Notes under the pieces: generated by a model
Told to the model about the DNA's origin: nothing
Databases searched by the model: none
Seen by the model: the letters and a program-made list of their open reading frames with translations, nothing else
Translations under genes and position numbers: made by a program
Assembly: GCA_002011035.2 (NCBI GenBank)
Contig: MTLY02000002.1
Coordinates: 192,001 to 256,000, forward strand
DNA length: 64,000 nucleotides
Reading direction: 5' to 3'
Source: Candidatus Hecatella orcuttiae
GTDB taxonomy: Archaea; Thermoproteota; Bathyarchaeia; Hecatellales; Hecatellaceae
Part shown: one piece after another, positions 12,135 through 27,029 of the stretch
How positions within the stretch are numbered: position 1 is the stretch's first letter
Layout of the letters: each line of letters starts with the position of its first letter

Positions 12135-13151
12135 TTACGCTCCTAATCTGTTTATTAGGCTTGATTTTTCGCGGTTCACAGTTTCTCTGACCAGAGCGGC
12201 TATCGCCCTGTGGTCTCTAGGATTGAATCCCGCTGTCTCCAGCTTCTTTAAGCTTTCCATCATGCCTTTGAGGTGGGGTTCTGGCAGTTTTTCGAGGAGG
12301 AAAAGATTCTCCTTCAGATAGCTTCCAACGTCTCGAAGGCTTATCTGCCTGATTTTTTTCTCCTCACAGAGAACAGCTATGACCACAGGGTTGGTTTCTT
12401 TGTTCGCAACGTCTTCCTCCAGCTTTCTGAAGTCATTGGCTGCCATCTGCATCAAAACCGCGGAGCAAAGCCAGAATTCAGAAAGATAGTCTTGGATTTC
12501 TTCGCTCTCTCCTCCGCTCTCCATGTAGACAATTCTAGCTATATACGCACCCATCAAGCCGAGTTTTTTCTCTAAAAGTTTAACTGCGCTTTCCCAGCTT
12601 GGAAATTTCTCCCTTAACCAGTCGACATCATCTTGCAAAAGGTGGAGGCGGACTGCCTTGTCTTCTTCTTGACCTGCCTCCAGCCGGGTTCTGCCTTCCT
12701 GGTATAGGTTTAACGATGAAGAGTGATACTGCCTGAACCTTTCATAGACAAGGCTTTTTAAACGCTGAGAGACCTTTGCTAAAAAATTGTAAGTTCTCCG
12801 CCTAGCTTCAAATTCCTCAGCATAAAGCTTATGTTTCAAGCTGAGAACTTCTGGGCGAAACTCGTCGTCCATGGTGTCCAGCACATCCGACTCGAAGGCT
12901 GTGAGTCGGAGGGATGCTGCCAACCGAAGGGACGGCTTCCGGAACGCTGCGTCAACGTATCCTCTGTTTCCTTTCCACACCACAAATGATTGGATAGTTG
13001 CCGCCTTCGACAGTCTGGTATGATAGTTTAGTAGAAAGCTGAGTTCTTCCGGGAAATTTTTAAAATGTTCCTTCAAAGTCTTTTTCATCATGAAGCTGGC
13101 AAGCTGGTCTGAAAAGGAGTAAAGCAAACCCAGATACGCCTTAGGCATCAT
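12135..13151 (-). CDS. Hypothetical protein with class I isoprenoid synthase (terpene synthase/trans-prenyltransferase) fold features
   Basis: Helical-looking sequence with two Asp-rich motifs at the expected spacing: SDVLDTMDDE and QMAANDFRKLEEDVANKETN. Confidence 0.55.
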   Translation of the reverse strand: MMPKAYLGLLYSFSDQLASFMMKKTLKEHFKNFPEELSFLLNYHTRLSKAATIQSFVVWKGNRGYVDAAFRKPSLRLAASLRLTAFESDVLDTMDDEFRPEVLSLKHKLYAEEFEARRRTYNFLAKVSQRLKSLVYERFRQYHSSSLNLYQEGRTRLEAGQEEDKAVRLHLLQDDVDWLREKFPSWESAVKLLEKKLGLMGAYIARIVYMESGGESEEIQDYLSEFWLCSAVLMQMAANDFRKLEEDVANKETNPVVIAVLCEEKKIRQISLRDVGSYLKENLFLLEKLPEPHLKGMMESLKKLETAGFNPRDHRAIAALVRETVNREKSSLINRLGA

Positions 13152-13180
13152 CGGTGAACAACTTAGCCTCCGCTACCGGC

Positions 13181-14110
13181 TTAGAATTCATAGATTTCCG
13201 GCCCAAAGATCCCTGCGATTATAACTCTCTTTCTGAGGATATGAGGCGTTGGAGGGGGGGCGGTAATTTTACCCTCTGGTGTGAAAACTCTAAATGAAAG
13301 AGACCCAAGTTTTTCGTGAACGAAATACATTTCAGCCTCCCTCTTCGACCGAACAAGAGCCCTTTCGCCGGAGCTGTATTTTTTAAGGTACTGGGTTGCC
13401 TCGTTGAGCATCATGCTTCTCAGCGCCAAGGCTACTAGGTAGATGAGTTGAGGGTCAGTCCAAGTTCGGCTGGAGGAGCCCTGTTGCACGTAGACAAAGC
13501 TGCTGTAGTCGGATTTCGAGGGGGGAAGCATCATGCCTGTGGGACATTGAAGTTTGGTATGCCTCACTGTCACGTTTACATCTGGAAGAAGTTGGAAGAG
13601 GGCTTCGTTTTTGACAGCCCAGTCTAGGGAGTAATTGATGAGGAAATGGGCAGTGAAAGTTGAATTGTTTTTCGTTTTCTCCTCCAACTTCTTGAGGTCT
13701 TGGGCGAAATGACCTGAAACTCCCTCAGGCTCTATACTGGAGTCTAGGTCTCCTAAAAACCTAAGCCTCACATTGAATTTGGCTGCGTAGTCGTCGTAGA
13801 TTACGTAAAGCCGTTTGAGGGCGTCGTAGATCTGGGGATAATTCTCCCTCAACCTATGTCTTTCCTCGATCACATTGATGTAACAGGCGGGACTGCCGAG
13901 GATTCTGAGAATGTGAAACAATCTTAAGGAGAAAATCCCCCCATCCACATAGGCTTCCGAACCCTCTAGGTCCGTGGAAGTCCTCATGCCGTCGGTCATC
14001 TCGTAAATGACCATCTTCCTGACCTTCTCCAAGGGATGCTCTATTCTGAGAGCCTCGCAGGCAGCGAGAAAAGTGTCGAGTACCTCTTCGCCTTCGGGAA
14101 GTTTAAACAA
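13181..14110 (-). CDS. Divergent cis-prenyltransferase-fold protein (UppS/Rv3378c-like)
   Basis: MTDGMRT (cf. IMDGNRR), VRLRFLGDL, EEKTKNN..F..HFLINYS, PDVNVTVR (cf. PDPDLLIR); lacks the canonical FSTENW and RTSGE.RLSNF. Confidence 0.7.
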   Translation of the reverse strand: MFKLPEGEEVLDTFLAACEALRIEHPLEKVRKMVIYEMTDGMRTSTDLEGSEAYVDGGIFSLRLFHILRILGSPACYINVIEERHRLRENYPQIYDALKRLYVIYDDYAAKFNVRLRFLGDLDSSIEPEGVSGHFAQDLKKLEEKTKNNSTFTAHFLINYSLDWAVKNEALFQLLPDVNVTVRHTKLQCPTGMMLPPSKSDYSSFVYVQQGSSSRTWTDPQLIYLVALALRSMMLNEATQYLKKYSSGERALVRSKREAEMYFVHEKLGSLSFRVFTPEGKITAPPPTPHILRKRVIIAGIFGPEIYEF

Positions 14111-14219
14111 CCTTATCTACAGCTCCAAGATAGGGTTGCTAAAAGTTTAAGCTAACCTTTTTGTCTTAAGCTTTTCTCCGACTCGAAAACGTGAACGAGG
14201 GTCTCAGGGAAATTCGCAG

Positions 14220-15278
14220 CTATGGGTGTATGGCCACCTTGATGGCCTTGCCTTGAGCCATGGATTTTAAGCCTTCTTCCACCCGGCTGAGCGGCATCTC
14301 CTGGGTGATAAATTCCTTTGCTTTGATGGCGCCGGAAGATATCAGACTTAAAGCTTTTTCGACACAGTGAGGTGTATGGTGGAAGACGCCCTTTATTGTA
14401 AGCTCCCCGTAGTGAACAGTCCCCGCGTCGAATGGTACAGTGCTTCCAGAAGGGCAGCCTCCGAAGAGGATGATTCGGCCTCCTTTCCCAGTCATCTGCA
14501 CGGCTTTTCTCCATGTTTCCGGAGAGCCCACGGCTTCGATGACAACTTCCGCTCCTCTTCCGCCCGTAAGTTTTCTCACTTCTTCCACCTGATCCACTTT
14601 CGACGCGTCGACTAAGCAGTCGGCTCCCAGTTTACGGGCGTTCTCAAGCCTTAAATTCGACAGGTCTGAAACTATAACCTCCCTCGCACCTTTTATCTTC
14701 GCCAGTTGCAGGTGCAGGAGGCCTATGGGCCCCGCCCCTATGATGGCCACCCGCTCGCCTAGGCCGATGTCGGCAAGTTCCACACCGTGGACTACGCAGG
14801 CTAAGGGCTCCAGCAAGGCGGCTTCCTCAAAGGAAACATGGCGGGGCACTTCGTACATGTTTTGCTGAACTATTCTGGCTGGGATTTTGATGTACTCCGC
14901 GTAGGCTCCTGGAATGGAGAAGCCGATTACATTTTCACTTAGGTTTTCGCAGAGGTTAGGTTTTCCCCTTTTACAGTAGTAGCAAGTGTTGCAGGGGGCT
15001 GTGTTGGCAGCGACGACCCTCATCCCCTTCCTGAAGCCTACAACTTCCCCGCCTATCTTGACTATGCGGCCGGAAAATTCATGTCCAATTATCATGGGAG
15101 GCTTAGTCAGGGGATGGCCAACCTTGTACATTTTCAGGTCGGTGCCGCAGGTTAAGACGACTTCAACCTTAACTAGAACATCCCGTGGGCCGATTTTAGG
15201 TATGTCCACTGTTTCCAGCTTTATGTCGCCTGGCTTATGGTATACCGCTGCTTTCATCCTACCATCCATTTTCATCAC
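14220..15278 (-). CDS. Zinc-dependent (MDR family) alcohol/polyol dehydrogenase
   Basis: CGTD, GHE, CNTCYYC...C structural Zn site, GAGPIG Rossmann motif. Confidence 0.92.
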   Translation of the reverse strand: MMKMDGRMKAAVYHKPGDIKLETVDIPKIGPRDVLVKVEVVLTCGTDLKMYKVGHPLTKPPMIIGHEFSGRIVKIGGEVVGFRKGMRVVAANTAPCNTCYYCKRGKPNLCENLSENVIGFSIPGAYAEYIKIPARIVQQNMYEVPRHVSFEEAALLEPLACVVHGVELADIGLGERVAIIGAGPIGLLHLQLAKIKGAREVIVSDLSNLRLENARKLGADCLVDASKVDQVEEVRKLTGGRGAEVVIEAVGSPETWRKAVQMTGKGGRIILFGGCPSGSTVPFDAGTVHYGELTIKGVFHHTPHCVEKALSLISSGAIKAKEFITQEMPLSRVEEGLKSMAQGKAIKVAIHP

Positions 15279-15304
15279 TCCACTCGCTGGTGCCGGGTCC
15301 TCCT

Positions 15305-16336
15305 TTAAGGGGTGATGATTATTTTCAGCGATTCTTTTCCTTCAGCAGCCAACTTTAAAGCATCAGCAACCTGGTCCAGCTTAAAAGAGTGGGTTATCAG
15401 TCCGCTCAACTCAAGCCGTTTGGTTTCCATCAGCCTTAAAGCCATATTTGTTTCCAGCTCCGTCGTCGAGTAGCTGGGAATGAGGGATATTTCCTGGATG
15501 AAAATTTTGCTAACATCATAGGAGAACACGGCTCCCTTCAGGGGAGCTCCGAAAAGAACCACGGTTCCACCTTTCCTCACCGAATCCAAACCCTGCCTGA
15601 TCGCTTCAATGCTTCCAGTAGCAACTATGACAGCGTCCACGCCTAAGCCGTGGGTGAGATTCTTCACAGCGAGAACAGGGTCTTCGCGCAGAGAGTTGAA
15701 GACAGCTTCAGCCCCAAATTTCTCAGCCGCCGCTAACCTAAAATCGACGAGGTCGCTGACGAAAATTCTACCTACTCCTAACAACTTCAGAAGCTTGGCG
15801 AAGATCAGCCCTGCAGGTCCGGCGCCGATGATCATCACGTCATCACCGGGTTGAAGACTTAGTTTCTTCGCACCTCTTATGCAACAGCCTACAGGCTCTA
15901 TGAGGGTGGCTTCTTGGAAAGAGATACCCCGCGGAATTTTAAGGACGGCGCCTCTCTTCACATTGGCGGCGGGGACTTTGAAATACTCTGCAAATCCTCC
16001 GGGGTCTAAGTTTGTGCGCGGAAATTCTTCGCACATCGTGTAGTCTCCATGCCTACAATAGTGGCATTTGTAGCAAGGGACATGATGATGAGTGAAAACT
16101 CTGTCGCCCACTCTCAGTCCCTCTACCCCTTCACCAACTTCCACAACTTCGCCCACTACTTCATGGCCTAAAACAGGGGGGGTGAGAAAGTAACCAGCAG
16201 TTTTCTCCACATCCGTTCCACAGACCCCACAAGCTTTCATCTTCACCAGCACTTCTCCACGCCCTATCTTGGGGATGGGGACATCCTCAACTCTTACGTC
16301 GCTGGGACCCCTCAGAAAAGCGGCTTTCATCTTCAC
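15305..16336 (-). CDS. Zinc-dependent (MDR family) alcohol/polyol dehydrogenase
   Basis: CGTD, GHE, CYKCHYC...C, GAGPAG. Confidence 0.92.
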   Translation of the reverse strand: MKMKAAFLRGPSDVRVEDVPIPKIGRGEVLVKMKACGVCGTDVEKTAGYFLTPPVLGHEVVGEVVEVGEGVEGLRVGDRVFTHHHVPCYKCHYCRHGDYTMCEEFPRTNLDPGGFAEYFKVPAANVKRGAVLKIPRGISFQEATLIEPVGCCIRGAKKLSLQPGDDVMIIGAGPAGLIFAKLLKLLGVGRIFVSDLVDFRLAAAEKFGAEAVFNSLREDPVLAVKNLTHGLGVDAVIVATGSIEAIRQGLDSVRKGGTVVLFGAPLKGAVFSYDVSKIFIQEISLIPSYSTTELETNMALRLMETKRLELSGLITHSFKLDQVADALKLAAEGKESLKIIITP

Positions 16337-16341
16337 CTACC

Positions 16342-16368
16342 TAATTGATTTAAGATTTCAATCAATTA
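16342..16368. promoter_or_regulatory. Palindromic operator-like inverted repeat
   Basis: TAATTGATT-N9-AATCAATTA, perfect 9-bp arms, between a TTTAAA TATA-like box (about 16376-16381) and the dehydrogenase start. Confidence 0.55.
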
Positions 16369-16572
16369 ATGAGGCTTTAAAGCCCGCTGAAAGTTTAAAA
16401 ACTTTCCATTCCTCTAACGCTGCAAGTTGCACTTTTTCCTCCGTTGCGATCGTAATGTTATTTAGGCATCAGTGTCAAGATCTTTTTTGAAAAATGGCTG
16501 ATTTTAACCTAAGGGAAGGACCTTCAAGCTTGACTGGGAAAATAGGTTTGCTTATTCTTTTGTCAACGTATT

Positions 16573-17946
16573 TTGAATATTGAGGTGTTGAAAATCACGG
16601 ACGTTGTCCTTATCTATCCATACTTCGCCCCTAAGATGGATAGGTCCATTTTTAGAGTTCCTCCCCTCGGTCTGGGCTACATTGCCTCCTACATAAGGCG
16701 CAACGGTTTTTCTGTAAAAATCGTAGATTGCACATTTCTGAGCTGGAAAAAAGCTGTTGACTCGGTGAGGCGGCTGAAACCATCCATCATCGGGATTTAC
16801 TCCATGTTTTCCATGGCGGAGCCTGCGACTCGGTTTGCTCAAGTCCTGAGGGGTGATTGCGCGCTTCTGGTCGCAGGGGGGCCTCTACCAAGCGTGAGGC
16901 CGGAGATTTTTTTGGAGAATTTTGACTTAGCAGTCAAAGGGGAAGGGGAGCAAACGTTTCTGGATATCGTGAAATGTTTTACGGAAGGAGGAGACCTTTC
17001 ACGTATCCCTGGCATTTTCCACAGCAAGAGTGAAGAAATAGCATTCACGGGGAACAGAAAGCCCTTTAAAAACTTGGACACCCTTCCCTTTCCGGCGCGA
17101 GACCTCTTTCCCAACAGGGATTACATCCTTTATTGGCGGAAGCGAGGTCACCCTCCTAAAACATCGATAATTACAACCCGGGGTTGCCCTTTCAGCTGCG
17201 ATTTTTGCAGCAACGCTGTCTTCGGTGTATCCTACCGGGAGAGAACAGCGAAGAATGTAGTCGAAGAAGTGGAAGATGCTTTGAAATTTGGATATGATGG
17301 CATATTTTTTGTCGACGATTGTTTTACTCTCAACAGGAAGAGGGTGGTGGAGATTTGCGATGAGATCCTAGCTAGAGACCTCGACTTTGAATGGGAATGC
17401 CTCTCTAGGGTTGATAACATAGACCGCGAGCTGGCGGGAAAGATGAAGCGGGCAGGATGCCGCAGGATTTTCTTCGGTATAGAGTCGGGAAATGAGAGAA
17501 CCCTGAGAATCATGGCGAAACACTTCTCCTTGGAGGAGGCTAGGAGAACCGTGGAGAACGTGGCTTCAGCCGGAATAAAGGCAGGAGCATTCTTCATCAT
17601 CGGCTACCCTGGGGAGACGGATGAAAGCATCCTAGATACCATCAATTTTTCAACCTCACTCCCTCTGGAATATCTTTCTTTCACACTGCCCTATCCTATT
17701 CCCGGCACAGGGTTGTATGAAAAAGTCAAGGATAGAATGACCCTCACAGACTGGGTCAGGCCGAAACTGGGATTGATCGACCATTCGCTGATCTACAAGT
17801 CGCATTTCTCCAGCGCTAAACTGAAATTTGCCATCCTAAAAGGCACTGTTCAATTTCAAATCAAGAAGCGGCTGGGTAGGTTCTCATGGCCCGTTGAGAA
17901 GCCCTTTAAAAAAATAACCAACTATGTTTTCAAAAAGTTGGTGTAA
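16573..17946 (+). CDS. B12-binding domain radical SAM protein (class B methyltransferase-like)
   Basis: PPLGLGYIAS, GGP, GEGE, RGCPFSCDFC, GIESG, IIGYPGET; TTG 16588 after GAGGTG is a likely true start. Confidence 0.93.
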   Translation: MNIEVLKITDVVLIYPYFAPKMDRSIFRVPPLGLGYIASYIRRNGFSVKIVDCTFLSWKKAVDSVRRLKPSIIGIYSMFSMAEPATRFAQVLRGDCALLVAGGPLPSVRPEIFLENFDLAVKGEGEQTFLDIVKCFTEGGDLSRIPGIFHSKSEEIAFTGNRKPFKNLDTLPFPARDLFPNRDYILYWRKRGHPPKTSIITTRGCPFSCDFCSNAVFGVSYRERTAKNVVEEVEDALKFGYDGIFFVDDCFTLNRKRVVEICDEILARDLDFEWECLSRVDNIDRELAGKMKRAGCRRIFFGIESGNERTLRIMAKHFSLEEARRTVENVASAGIKAGAFFIIGYPGETDESILDTINFSTSLPLEYLSFTLPYPIPGTGLYEKVKDRMTLTDWVRPKLGLIDHSLIYKSHFSSAKLKFAILKGTVQFQIKKRLGRFSWPVEKPFKKITNYVFKKLV

Positions 17947-25709: not shown

Positions 25710-27029
25710 TCAAGCCGACTTGGCGGGGAAAATGTCGGCTATGGTTTGGTCGCAGAGAGAGCTGAGGTCGTTGAACACTTGTTCAATCTGGTCGATGGAG
25801 AGGTGGCGGGTTGTGAACAAAGGTGTGACAAAGTCGTATCTGTCAGTGTCCTCCGACAGGATGGATATTCCCAGCTCATTGGCGTAGGTGCGAAGGTAGG
25901 TTCCCGGGAAAGGTGTGGTCATGGAAAGAACTAAGTGGGCGCCCATTCCCTTCAACTCCTTCATCAATTTTTCAGTTTCCTTCAACGTCTCCAAAGTGTC
26001 CTCTGGGAAAGGCATCATAAAGTTACAGAACGTGGATATCCCCGCCTCCACCGACCGTCTCACCGCCCTCTTAACCTGCTCCACCGTTATGCCTTTCCGA
26101 ATGTGGTTCAGGATCCTCTGAGACCCAGACTCAACTCCGTATTGAATGCAAACACATCCGGAGCGAGCCATTTCCTGAACCACATCCCTGCTCACCGTGT
26201 TCACTCTAGCCTCACATGACCATCCGACTTTCACACCCAGCTCCCATATGCCGCGGCATATTTTTTCAGTCCTATCTCTGAACACGGTGAAGGTATCGTC
26301 GGCAATGAAGAAATAGTCGACACCAAACCTGTTGATAAGCTGCCTCATCTCAGCCACCACATCCTCGTGGCTTCGAACACGATACCTGCCTCCGGACAAT
26401 GTCCCCGCTGAGCAAAAGATGCAGTTGTAAGGACAACCCCTACTCGTCACCAGGGTGCCAGGTATCTTGTAGAGCCTCATGGAAAACAGATGCCGCGCTG
26501 GGTAGGGAAGACCGTCGAGATTCTGGATCAATGGTCGGTCTGGGTTGTTTACCACCTTTCCGTCCTTTTTGTAGCTGATGCCTTGAACTTCATGCAGCCG
26601 CCTATCTCCCTTCAGCAGTCGGCTTGCAAGCTCCAGCATCGTGGCTTCTCCCTCCCGGCGGACGACAATATCAACCTGCGGATTTGCAAGGGTTTCCTCG
26701 GCTGTAAAAGTGACATGCGGACCTCCTAGGATGGTACAGATCTCCGTGTTCAGTTCCTTAGCGGCTTTCGCGATCTTCAAAGCGTTTTTGTAGGTGAGAG
26801 TGTTCGCTGTTATCCCGACGAGTTTAGGCTGGTGACGACTGACTTCGGATTTGAACGCGTCCTCTTCCATTTTCACTATCGCCATGTCGACGACATGGGT
26901 GTCGAAACCGTGAAAGAGAAGGTTTGAGGCGATGTAGCCGAGACCTAAAGGCGGGCAGAAAACAGCTTCCTCCACGTAGTCCGCCATGGTTTTAGGCAAA
27001 GGCGGCTGCACCAAGAGGACATCAGCCAT
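25710..27029 (-). CDS. B12-binding domain radical SAM protein
   Basis: PPLGLGYIAS, GGPH, EGE, SRGCPYNCIFC, DDTF, GVESGS, PFPGT. Confidence 0.93.
   Translation of the reverse strand: MADVLLVQPPLPKTMADYVEEAVFCPPLGLGYIASNLLFHGFDTHVVDMAIVKMEEDAFKSEVSRHQPKLVGITANTLTYKNALKIAKAAKELNTEICTILGGPHVTFTAEETLANPQVDIVVRREGEATMLELASRLLKGDRRLHEVQGISYKKDGKVVNNPDRPLIQNLDGLPYPARHLFSMRLYKIPGTLVTSRGCPYNCIFCSAGTLSGGRYRVRSHEDVVAEMRQLINRFGVDYFFIADDTFTVFRDRTEKICRGIWELGVKVGWSCEARVNTVSRDVVQEMARSGCVCIQYGVESGSQRILNHIRKGITVEQVKRAVRRSVEAGISTFCNFMMPFPEDTLETLKETEKLMKELKGMGAHLVLSMTTPFPGTYLRTYANELGISILSEDTDRYDFVTPLFTTRHLSIDQIEQVFNDLSSLCDQTIADIFPAKSA

Follow-up and report, generated by a model that had tools for sequence, protein, structure and literature searches.

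The 64,000-nt stretch of the Candidatus Hecatella orcuttiae genome analysed here (contig MTLY02000002.1, positions 192,001 to 256,000 of the forward strand; hereafter the window) encodes two adjacent minus-strand genes, for cPT309 (309 amino acids), a divergent protein of the cis-prenyltransferase (cis-PT) type, and TS338 (338 amino acids), a protein of the class I isoprenoid-synthase type. We propose that this pair is a non-orthologous displacement of geranylgeranylglyceryl phosphate (GGGP) synthase (GGGPS) and digeranylgeranylglyceryl phosphate (DGGGP) synthase (DGGGPS) in the synthesis of core archaeal membrane lipids, a reading to which comparative genomics leads us to give a probability of roughly 0.6. 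GGGPS and DGGGPS are treated as defining archaeal membrane enzymes and as markers of the 'lipid divide' and of lipid autonomy, especially in DPANN archaea. The functional unit of the locus is the gene pair cPT309-TS338 (positions 14110 to 12135, minus strand). Within it, the prediction that cPT309 is an analogous GGGP synthase is the part we hold with most confidence and consider rather probable, while the prediction that TS338 is an analogous, soluble DGGGP synthase has in our judgement about an even chance of being right.

Loss of both canonical ether-bond enzymes in the window's genome

The genome that contains the window (G000; 97% complete, three contigs) has lost both canonical ether-bond enzymes, the GGGPS PcrB and the UbiA-type DGGGPS. 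Searches with PF01884 or TIGR01768 found no PcrB in it, the only matches being TIM barrels of the HisA type or His operon, and its best match to the DGGGPS model scored 68 bits, compared with 170-200 bits in 12 of 13 relatives from the same family. All ten family relatives in the class sample described below have PcrB and none has cPT309. The two losses can be followed in the gene order. In the relatives G005, G017 and G011 the lipid locus reads UbiD-DGGGPS-Tes-GGR-GGGPS-G1PDH...GGPPS, where Tes is tetraether synthase, GGR geranylgeranyl reductase, G1PDH sn-glycerol-1-phosphate (G1P) dehydrogenase and GGPPS geranylgeranyl diphosphate (GGPP) synthase. The corresponding segment of G000 (C1:70221-76739) keeps UbiD, Tes, GGR, G1PDH and GGPPS in the relatives' order, without DGGGPS and GGGPS; 52 nt separate Tes from UbiD at the DGGGPS slot, and 34 nt separate GGR from G1PDH at the GGGPS slot. 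A 416-amino-acid FtsX/LolC-like permease, encoded in this locus in both G005 and G017, is likewise absent from the G000 locus (C1:76739-76777, compared with L083:1063-2313).

G000 encodes three polyprenyl synthases and one G1PDH. Its UbiA proteins number four: heme O synthase, a MenA-like protein, a DPPR-synthase-like protein and one weak DGGGPS-like paralogue (C3:367061-367918; 87 bits to NF009523). Similarly weak UbiA paralogues occur in G029 (62 bits), G053 (61.5 bits), G113 (60.6 bits) and G011 (47 bits), three of which also carry a DGGGPS scoring 170-200 bits. A canonical undecaprenyl diphosphate synthase (UPPS; 260 bits) is encoded elsewhere in G000, so the cis-PT for carrier lipids is separate from cPT309. 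This UPPS gene and one for a polyprenyl synthase lie close together at G000:C2:180599-183873, 8-11 kb before the start of the window.

Distribution of cPT309 and PcrB across genomes

To place cPT309 in a wider context, we collected 60 loci encoding its relatives from species-representative genomes and clustered all of their open reading frames (ORFs). The loci come from Bathyarchaeia, Methanoperedenaceae, GoM-Arc1 ethane oxidisers, Aenigmatarchaeota, Altiarchaeales, Thermoplasmatota, Micrarchaeota and Heimdallarchaeota. Fifty of the 60 holder genomes were scored for PcrB, G1PDH and UbiA. Full-length PcrB was present in three of these and absent from the other 47, while G1PDH was found in 48 and a DGGGPS-like UbiA in 44, so that the gap in the pathway falls mostly at the GGGPS step alone. 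Weak PcrB matches in holders were considered as candidates for divergent PcrB; the eight that we checked were all OMPdecase, IGPS, HisA/F or Fae-Hps proteins.

The distribution was then compared between holders and non-holders in three lineage samples, which overlap partly with the 50 holders. PcrB is present in 54 of the 60 non-holders and absent from the single cPT309 holder in the class sample of Bathyarchaeia (61 genomes). For the order Methanosarcinales (71 genomes) the corresponding counts are 59 of 62 non-holders and one of nine holders, and for the phylum Aenigmatarchaeota (71 genomes, E <= 1e-15) they are 38 of 66 and zero of five. Overall, cPT309 and PcrB largely exclude each other across genomes in these samples of three unrelated lineages.

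Gene neighbourhoods of cPT309 and TS338

The neighbourhoods of cPT309 point to the same pathway. Its sole strongly recurrent neighbour is a DGGGPS-like UbiA membrane protein (265-345 amino acids), encoded within 4.5 kb in 29 of the 60 loci. The top models for these neighbours are DGGGP synthase equivalogs (NF009521, 189-228 bits, below the 296-bit cut-off). In the other nine Bathyarchaeia loci the DGGGPS-like gene lies directly downstream of cPT309 and in the same orientation, the place that TS338 takes in the window. G1PDH is encoded within 4.5 kb of cPT309 in nine of the 60 loci, all from Aenigmatarchaeota or unassigned archaea. One genome (G102: L045; C42:3982-5555) has both systems, and in it the canonical PcrB and cPT309 each have their own DGGGPS-like neighbour.

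TS338 is much rarer, with 14 relatives among 1.84 billion representative sequences. Five of the 50 cPT309 holders encode it, all of them Aenigmatarchaeota, and in each the gene adjoins cPT309 convergently and is followed by G1PDH. These five are also five of the only six holders with no DGGGPS-like match; none of them has a PF01040 match, and all have a polyprenyl synthase and G1PDH. In addition, each of the three metagenome contigs with a gene for a TS338 relative has cPT309 next to it, and two of these contigs (L101, with a 42-nt spacer, and L100) have cPT309 followed by TS338 in the same orientation, as in the window. A first-pass annotation of the window had linked the two genes, and their recurrence as a pair in five Aenigmatarchaeota and three metagenome loci bears this out.

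Two further loci place TS338 relatives beside PcrB. On a small Aenigmatarchaeota contig (L107, G191:C36:1-2880), a distant relative of 375 amino acids, a PcrB of 253 amino acids and G1PDH are encoded side by side; this PcrB is very divergent (26.5 bits), and we found no UbiA match in the G191 genome. The genome G081 has its cPT309-TS338 locus on one contig and, on another, a second lipid cluster (L096, G081:C6:5662-9498) with the order G1PDH, TS338 paralogue, PcrB, in which the paralogue is split into two ORFs (285 and 96 amino acids; a frameshift or an assembly error). Taken together, none of the six TS338 genomes other than G000 has a UbiA match, and TS338 is always found beside cPT309 or beside PcrB and G1PDH, occupying the place expected of a DGGGP synthase in genomes without one. 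We also considered TS338 as a replacement for GGPP synthase and rejected it; canonical polyprenyl synthases are already present, three in G000 and one in each of the five Aenigmatarchaeota.

cPT309 is a divergent member of the cis-prenyltransferase fold

For both proteins, the evidence on fold consists of the ESM Atlas's own models and weak sequence signals. The cPT309 family is well conserved, with 64 relatives at identities down to 39% and about 35 invariant positions in an alignment of 42 sequences, including the donor-site Asp. Against PF01255 the window protein missed the gathering score (16.8 bits, cut-off 27, E 0.005, residues 81-167), as it did the cut-off of TIGR00055 in NCBIfam (17.2 bits against 109.55), and it has no match to PF01884, TIGR01768 or TIGR01769 in Pfam and NCBIfam. 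When the family profile was compared with the PDB, the only enzymes matched were chains of the cis-PT fold (UPPS, cyclolavandulyl diphosphate synthase and Rv3378c), all weakly, at E 0.15-1.7; the Rv3378c chains were matched at E 0.73-1.1 over about 50 residues. Stronger matches were to L7/L30 ribosomal proteins, over a 31-residue stretch of low information. The Atlas holds the exact cPT309 sequence, and its model (predicted template-modelling score, pTM, 0.74; predicted local distance difference test score, pLDDT, 0.69) aligns with two PF01255 clusters at template-modelling (TM) scores of 0.61 and 0.63 over 217-233 residues.

A profile alignment (hhalign) of the cPT309 family with 22 archaeal UPPS gave a probability of 48.6% and E 1.8e-4 over 117 columns, in the N-terminal half only. 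In this alignment D40, G41 and R43, invariant in the 42 cPT309 sequences, fall on D50-G51-N52-R53 of UPPS, the DGNR motif of the donor site. S96 and N99, invariant residues of the UPPS FSTEN motif, are aligned with V80 and E83 of cPT309, of which V80 is invariant and E83 is mostly Glu (Q or A in two of 21 printed rows of the 42-row alignment). The Ser and Asn of the FSxEN motif serve the condensation of isopentenyl diphosphate (IPP) in Escherichia coli UPPS, and their replacement by V80 and E83 argues against IPP condensation by cPT309. The C-terminal half of cPT309, corresponding to the region of the acceptor (IPP) site in cis-PTs, could not be aligned with UPPS. We found no transmembrane or hydrophobic segment in cPT309 or TS338. 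The models and alignments thus indicate a cis-PT fold for cPT309, in which the donor site is preserved and the acceptor site remodelled, in agreement with the first-pass annotation, which had called the 309-amino-acid protein a divergent member of this fold.

In a FastTree phylogeny of 58 cPT309 sequences the window protein is placed at the base of the Bathyarchaeia clade (support 91), which is sister (support 99) to the clade of TS338-linked Aenigmatarchaeota. The branch of the window protein is long, and we treat its placement as tentative. The unnamed Atlas clusters that lie closest to cPT309 in features or in structure include one, 58% archaeal, whose commonest known phylum is Ignavibacteriota and one, 90% bacterial, in which it is Chloroflexota; in addition, one cPT309 locus (L035) carries the label 'uncultured bacterium'. 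The family may extend to bacteria that make ether lipids.

TS338 belongs to a new family with a class I isoprenoid-synthase fold

Neither Pfam nor NCBIfam has a family for TS338, and none of its 14 family members matched one at a meaningful E-value. Its Atlas model (pTM 0.82) aligns with the PF00348 polyprenyl_synt cluster over 280 residues at a TM score of 0.71 (0.76 in the other normalisation), compared with 0.53 for SQS_PSY and 0.55 for UbiA; both sides of these comparisons are predicted models. Hydropathy in a 19-residue window has a maximum of 0.87, with no window above 1.6.

Two Asp-rich motifs of variant form are present. The first is D89-x2-D92-x3-D96 (DxxDxxxD), with D92 and D96 invariant in the 14 sequences; the second, (N/D)239-D240-x6-D247, follows Q235 and corresponds to a family pattern Q-x3-(N/D)D-x6-D..N. 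In hhalign the second motif is in register with the FQxxDD region of six GGPP synthases, weakly (E 0.005, probability 7%). Comparison of the TS338 profile with the PDB gave as its best match a 'terpene synthase' (9kgb) at chance level, E 0.5, located at an NDxxSxxxE-like motif, and hhalign against G1PDH, UbiA and cPT309 returned probabilities of at most 0.6%. From the modelled structure we assign TS338 to the class I isoprenoid-synthase fold, as a new family. The first-pass annotation had read the 338-amino-acid protein as class I isoprenoid-synthase-like on the strength of two Asp-rich motifs; the motifs turn out to be conserved across the family, and the TM score to polyprenyl_synt together with the weak match to GGPP synthases fits that reading.

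Proposed reactions of the pair

The folds, gene losses, phyletic complementarity and neighbourhoods are as described above; from them we infer the following substrates and reactions. In the proposed scheme, cPT309 would act as a soluble enzyme and bind GGPP through its conserved N-terminal Asp/Gly/Arg donor motif and hold G1P in the remodelled acceptor site, so that the geranylgeranyl group would be moved to the C3 hydroxyl of sn-glycerol-1-phosphate, and not onto IPP, to give GGGP, as in the PcrB reaction. This assignment is made because of the phyletic complementarity with PcrB, the syntenic loss and the gene neighbourhood. TS338 would then ionise a second GGPP on its Asp-rich motifs and put this second geranylgeranyl group on the C2 hydroxyl of GGGP, giving DGGGP as UbiA-type DGGGPS does; this step is less certain than the first. 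The retained G1PDH, GGPP synthase, GGR and tetraether synthase Tes would supply and process the intermediates as usual.

The product expected from this scheme is an ordinary membrane lipid. The first-pass annotation had pictured an unusual lipid or terpenoid conjugate formed by cyclisation, oxidation or methylation, away from which the phyletic and syntenic evidence points. Its idea of prenyl transfer to a nucleoside or polyol acceptor survives in part, the polyol half being close to the transfer of geranylgeranyl to G1P proposed here.

The locus and its neighbouring genes

The coordinates of the pair and of the features around it are listed in Table 1. All five ORFs, including those of two Zn-dependent medium-chain dehydrogenase/reductase (MDR) proteins and a divergently transcribed B12-binding radical S-adenosylmethionine (SAM) protein (rSAM), are present as the first-pass annotation had described them, according to the ORF list and Pfam, and the gap that it had reported upstream of cPT309 is real.

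Table 1. Features of the cPT309-TS338 locus and its surroundings (positions in the window)
Feature	Position	Strand	Description
TS338	12135-13151	-	Class I isoprenoid-synthase-fold protein (predicted), rare family; candidate soluble DGGGP synthase analogue (second ether bond)
Spacer cPT309/TS338	13152-13180	-	29 nt
cPT309	13181-14110	-	Divergent cis-PT fold (predicted); candidate analogous GGGP synthase (first ether bond, GGPP + G1P)
Gap upstream of cPT309	14111-14219	-	109 nt
MDR_B	14220-15278	-	Zn-dependent MDR dehydrogenase; ADH_N + ADH_zinc_N
MDR_A	15305-16336	-	Zn-dependent MDR dehydrogenase; ADH_N + ADH_zinc_N
Palindrome TAATTGATTTAA-gat-TTCAATCAATTA	16342-16368	.	12-nt arms, 92% complementary, 3-nt loop; just upstream of MDR_A
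Second palindrome GAAAGTTT-aa-AAACTTTC	16389-16406		MDR_A/rSAM divergent intergenic region
B12-binding radical SAM protein (rSAM)	16573-17946	+	457 amino acids; PF02310 + PF04055; divergent from the other four genes

Judging from the coordinates and from the same order and orientation in the metagenome loci L101 and L100, cPT309 and TS338 are likely to be co-transcribed across their 29-nt spacer. The 109-nt gap possibly holds a promoter of the pair's own; it contains CTTAAA at 14151-14146, which we take to be TATA-like against the archaeal consensus, and a search for an inverted repeat within the gap found none. In L101 the upstream neighbour of the pair is oriented divergently, so there the pair is transcribed on its own.

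On one flank of the five genes Pfam identifies BPD_transp_1 and ABC_tran, consistent with the tupBC assignment of the first-pass annotation, and on the other Ribosomal_L15e, which agrees with its rpl15e. The genes top6A, tupBC, L15e and ilvD are scattered over different places in five family relatives, so there is no conserved backbone against which to call the insertion between tupBC and rpl15e that the first-pass annotation had described. Base composition showed no distinct island at the locus.

MDR_A and MDR_B are 35-36% identical to each other, and both score above the Pfam cut-offs for ADH_N (GroES-like) and ADH_zinc_N; their best NCBIfam models (Tdh, scyllo-inosose 3-dehydrogenase (IolM) and other equivalogs) are all below cut-off. 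The radical SAM protein passes the cut-offs of PF02310 (56.3 bits) and PF04055 (102.4 bits) and reaches no NCBIfam equivalog cut-off. Homologues of these proteins are found in family relatives without cPT309, at 32-38% identity for MDR_B (four of five relatives) and 38-41% for the radical SAM protein (five of five). Elsewhere in G000 the radical SAM protein has five weaker matches (25-36% identity). One such paralogue, 32% identical, lies 8 kb away inside the window (minus strand, about 25893-27029; G000:C2:217893-219029). The family relative G029, whose genome lacks cPT309, has a tandem MDR pair (G029:C30:2791-5281) that is 33-35% identical to MDR_B, so MDR pairs recur independently of prenyl genes.

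No homologue of the MDR or B12-radical SAM proteins is encoded beside cPT309 in any of the 60 related loci or in the three metagenome loci with the pair; one MDR-like gene lies about 3 kb from cPT309 in L010. MDR_A, MDR_B and the radical SAM protein are therefore probably neighbours outside the cPT309-TS338 system, and the five-gene cluster of the first-pass annotation does not hold up, although its own caveat that the dehydrogenases and radical SAM gene might be incidental proved right. The palindrome that it had noted at the head of the dehydrogenase genes was found, along with a second one. The palindrome at 16342-16368 belongs to the divergent region between the dehydrogenase and radical SAM genes, not to the pair, and both palindromes are putative sites for a regulator of MDR_A and the radical SAM gene. 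A link of the locus to butanetriol or pentanetriol tetraethers through the neighbouring B12-radical SAM gene was considered and dropped, as that gene is nowhere linked to the pair.

Points against the proposal and alternative explanations

Several observations weigh against the proposed displacement. For cPT309, the signals in sequence are an hhalign probability of 48.6% and a Pfam score below cut-off, and the binding of G1P is a conjecture, the region that binds the acceptor in cis-PTs not being alignable. Three holders (G102, G085 and G081) have a full-length PcrB besides cPT309. Moreover, both enzymes are missing from three Methanosarcinales (G124, G151 and G160), six Bathyarchaeia, two of them 98% complete (G014 and G042), and 28 Aenigmatarchaeota, so a third solution, or divergent PcrBs missed by PF01884, must exist. 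Related genomes are not independent of one another, and most of those used are metagenome-assembled. For TS338 the case is drawn from fewer genomes, namely G000, five closely related Aenigmatarchaeota, G191 and three metagenome contigs; in the Aenigmatarchaeota cPT309 and TS338 are convergent and so are not co-transcribed, and as reduced DPANN genomes these may lack UbiA for other reasons. The weak UbiA paralogue of G000 might carry out the second ether-bond step there. Finally, hhalign of TS338 against 29 DGGGPS-like UbiA proteins detected no relationship (probability 0.1%).

Some of these points favour an alternative in which cPT309 is the GGGP synthase and TS338 is an accessory or other isoprenoid enzyme, such as a chain-length-specific synthase, a partner delivering GGPP or an enzyme that tailors lipids; in G000 the divergent UbiA would then make the second bond, which in DPANN would either not be made or be taken from a host. 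The retained weak DGGGPS-like UbiA (87 bits to NF009523), the polyprenyl synthases as best structural match of TS338 (TM 0.71), the reduced nature of DPANN genomes and the rarity of TS338, when cPT309 has a UbiA partner in 44 of 50 holders, all agree with it. We nevertheless consider it unlikely. The weak UbiA paralogue also occurs in relatives that have a canonical DGGGPS, and so is not the DGGGPS of the family; all six TS338 genomes beyond G000 lack UbiA yet keep GGPP synthase and G1PDH; TS338 fills the slot that DGGGPS has in other Bathyarchaeia loci; and G000 already has its three canonical polyprenyl synthases. A role of cPT309 in glycosyl-carrier lipids, either as a second polyprenyl-diphosphate synthase or as a non-catalytic, NgBR/Nus1-like partner of UPPS, seems to us improbable. 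It would be in keeping with the cis-PT fold, heteromeric archaeal cis-PTs exist, and the anticorrelation with PcrB would then reflect shared ancestry or undetected divergent GGGPS genes, as the genomes without either enzyme (in which PcrB is absent without cPT309) and the G191 PcrB missed at strict thresholds might suggest. Against this, G000 has a full canonical UPPS of 260 bits, and the about 35 invariant residues of cPT309, including the donor-site Asp, are unlike a degenerate accessory subunit; V80 and E83 at the Ser and Asn positions of UPPS speak against IPP condensation. Such a role also leaves the linkage to DGGGPS (29/60) and G1PDH (9/60) and the syntenic loss of GGGPS unexplained, and the complementarity is repeated in three unrelated lineages, with all eight weak PcrB matches being other TIM barrels.

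Least probable, and in our view very much so, is that all five genes form one pathway in which TS338 builds or cyclises a prenyl diphosphate, cPT309 transfers it, the MDR proteins oxidise it and the B12-radical SAM protein methylates it to give a terpenoid conjugate. Four co-oriented genes with short spacers and a divergent radical SAM gene would suit such a pathway, both prenyl-enzyme folds were confirmed, and the Rv3377c/Rv3378c system, in which a terpene cyclase is reportedly paired with a cis-PT-fold transferase, offers an analogy. However, apart from the MDR-like gene in L010, the 60 related and three metagenome loci have no MDR or radical SAM gene flanking cPT309, the homologues of both in relatives occur in genomes without it, and the loss of GGGPS and DGGGPS and the linkage to G1PDH and DGGGPS genes would remain unexplained. 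Displacement of the two ether-bond enzymes by cPT309 and TS338 is the reading that we carry forward.

Implications and comparison with known systems

Both the reaction and the pathway were known before, whereas the enzymes that we propose for them are new. For the two ether-bond steps only GGGPS and DGGGPS are named in the available text of a survey from 2019, a study of Micrarchaeota from 2025 and a review from October 2026. We found no literature tying GGGP synthesis to cis-PTs or suggesting a soluble DGGGPS, and none on GGGPS-less Methanoperedens, Bathyarchaeia or Altiarchaeum, and a term search of PMC13003381 gave no match; the supplements of surveys (PMC6431249, PMC12892359) may list absences by genome.

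If the proposal is right, it would account for Methanoperedens, the ethane oxidisers, Altiarchaeum and the termite-gut Bathyarchaeia, which gene surveys would score as 'GGGPS absent', and the inference of lipid autonomy and pathway ancestry from gene presence would need revision. It would also add two chemistries, namely a cis-PT scaffold that O-prenylates G1P and a DGGGP synthase that is soluble. The latter would help in the engineering of archaeal lipids in bacterial hosts, in which the UbiA step, a membrane-bound one, has to be expressed. Taken beyond the window, the suggestion would be that both ether-bond enzymes of archaeal lipids have non-homologous analogues, with cPT309 displacing PcrB in at least six lineages (Bathyarchaeia, Methanoperedenaceae with GoM-Arc1, Altiarchaeales, Aenigmatarchaeota, Thermoplasmatota and Micrarchaeota) and TS338 displacing UbiA here and in some DPANN. 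At the core of the lipid divide the window's genome would in that case rely on two enzymes whose ancestry is wholly different. This broader version is tentative, and we would put it at somewhat less than even odds.

Compared with known enzymes, cPT309 would share with the PcrB GGGPS (PF01884/TIGR01769) its reaction, GGPP + G1P to GGGP, and something of its context; PcrB adjoins G1PDH, GGR and DGGGPS in relatives, and cPT309 is likewise linked to DGGGPS and G1PDH genes. PcrB is a TIM barrel of unrelated fold, however, which would make cPT309 a functional analogue and not a member of that family. With UPPS and other cis-PTs (PF01255) cPT309 shares the fold and the N-terminal D-G-x-R donor motif, and differs from them in having V80 and E83 for the Ser and Asn of FSxEN, in a C-terminal half that cannot be aligned and in its predicted acceptor, G1P instead of IPP. 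Two further cis-PT-fold proteins act on other acceptors. Rv3378c of Mycobacterium tuberculosis is reportedly a tuberculosinyl transferase of this fold that uses halimane diphosphate and adenosine as substrates. MM_0014, a cis-PT of Methanosarcina mazei, also O-prenylates glycerol (PMC8131916), as a secondary activity with free glycerol and small alcohols as acceptors. Both illustrate that a cis-PT fold can prenylate a hydroxyl or heteroatom of a non-isoprenoid acceptor; neither has a link to G1PDH or DGGGPS or takes the place of GGGPS. The comparison with Rv3378c, drawn already in the first-pass annotation, is apt as to mechanism and less so as to pathway, given the linkage of cPT309 to G1PDH and DGGGPS genes; cPT309 has no close sequence relationship to the Rv3378c type, and the adjacent TS338 is class I-like, not a class II diterpene cyclase.

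TS338 resembles the UbiA-type DGGGPS (PF01040; NF009521/NF009523) in its proposed reaction and in the slot it takes downstream of cPT309, and genomes carry either a DGGGPS-like UbiA or TS338. There is also some likeness in the spacing of the first motif, DxxDxxxD in TS338 and NDxxDxxxD in the UbiA neighbours of cPT309. The UbiA enzymes are polytopic membrane proteins, whereas TS338 is predicted to be soluble, and between the two the hhalign probability is 0.1% and the TM score a moderate 0.55. It is to the trans-isoprenyl diphosphate synthases and other class I terpenoid synthases (PF00348) that TS338 is structurally closest, being all-helical in its model with two Asp-rich motifs and a TM score of 0.71; it differs in the form of those motifs, DxxDxxxD and (N/D)Dx6D in place of DDxx(xx)D and DDxxD, and in matching no Pfam or NCBIfam model. 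Set against these enzymes, the genomic context of TS338 favours prenylation of GGGP over chain elongation or cyclisation.

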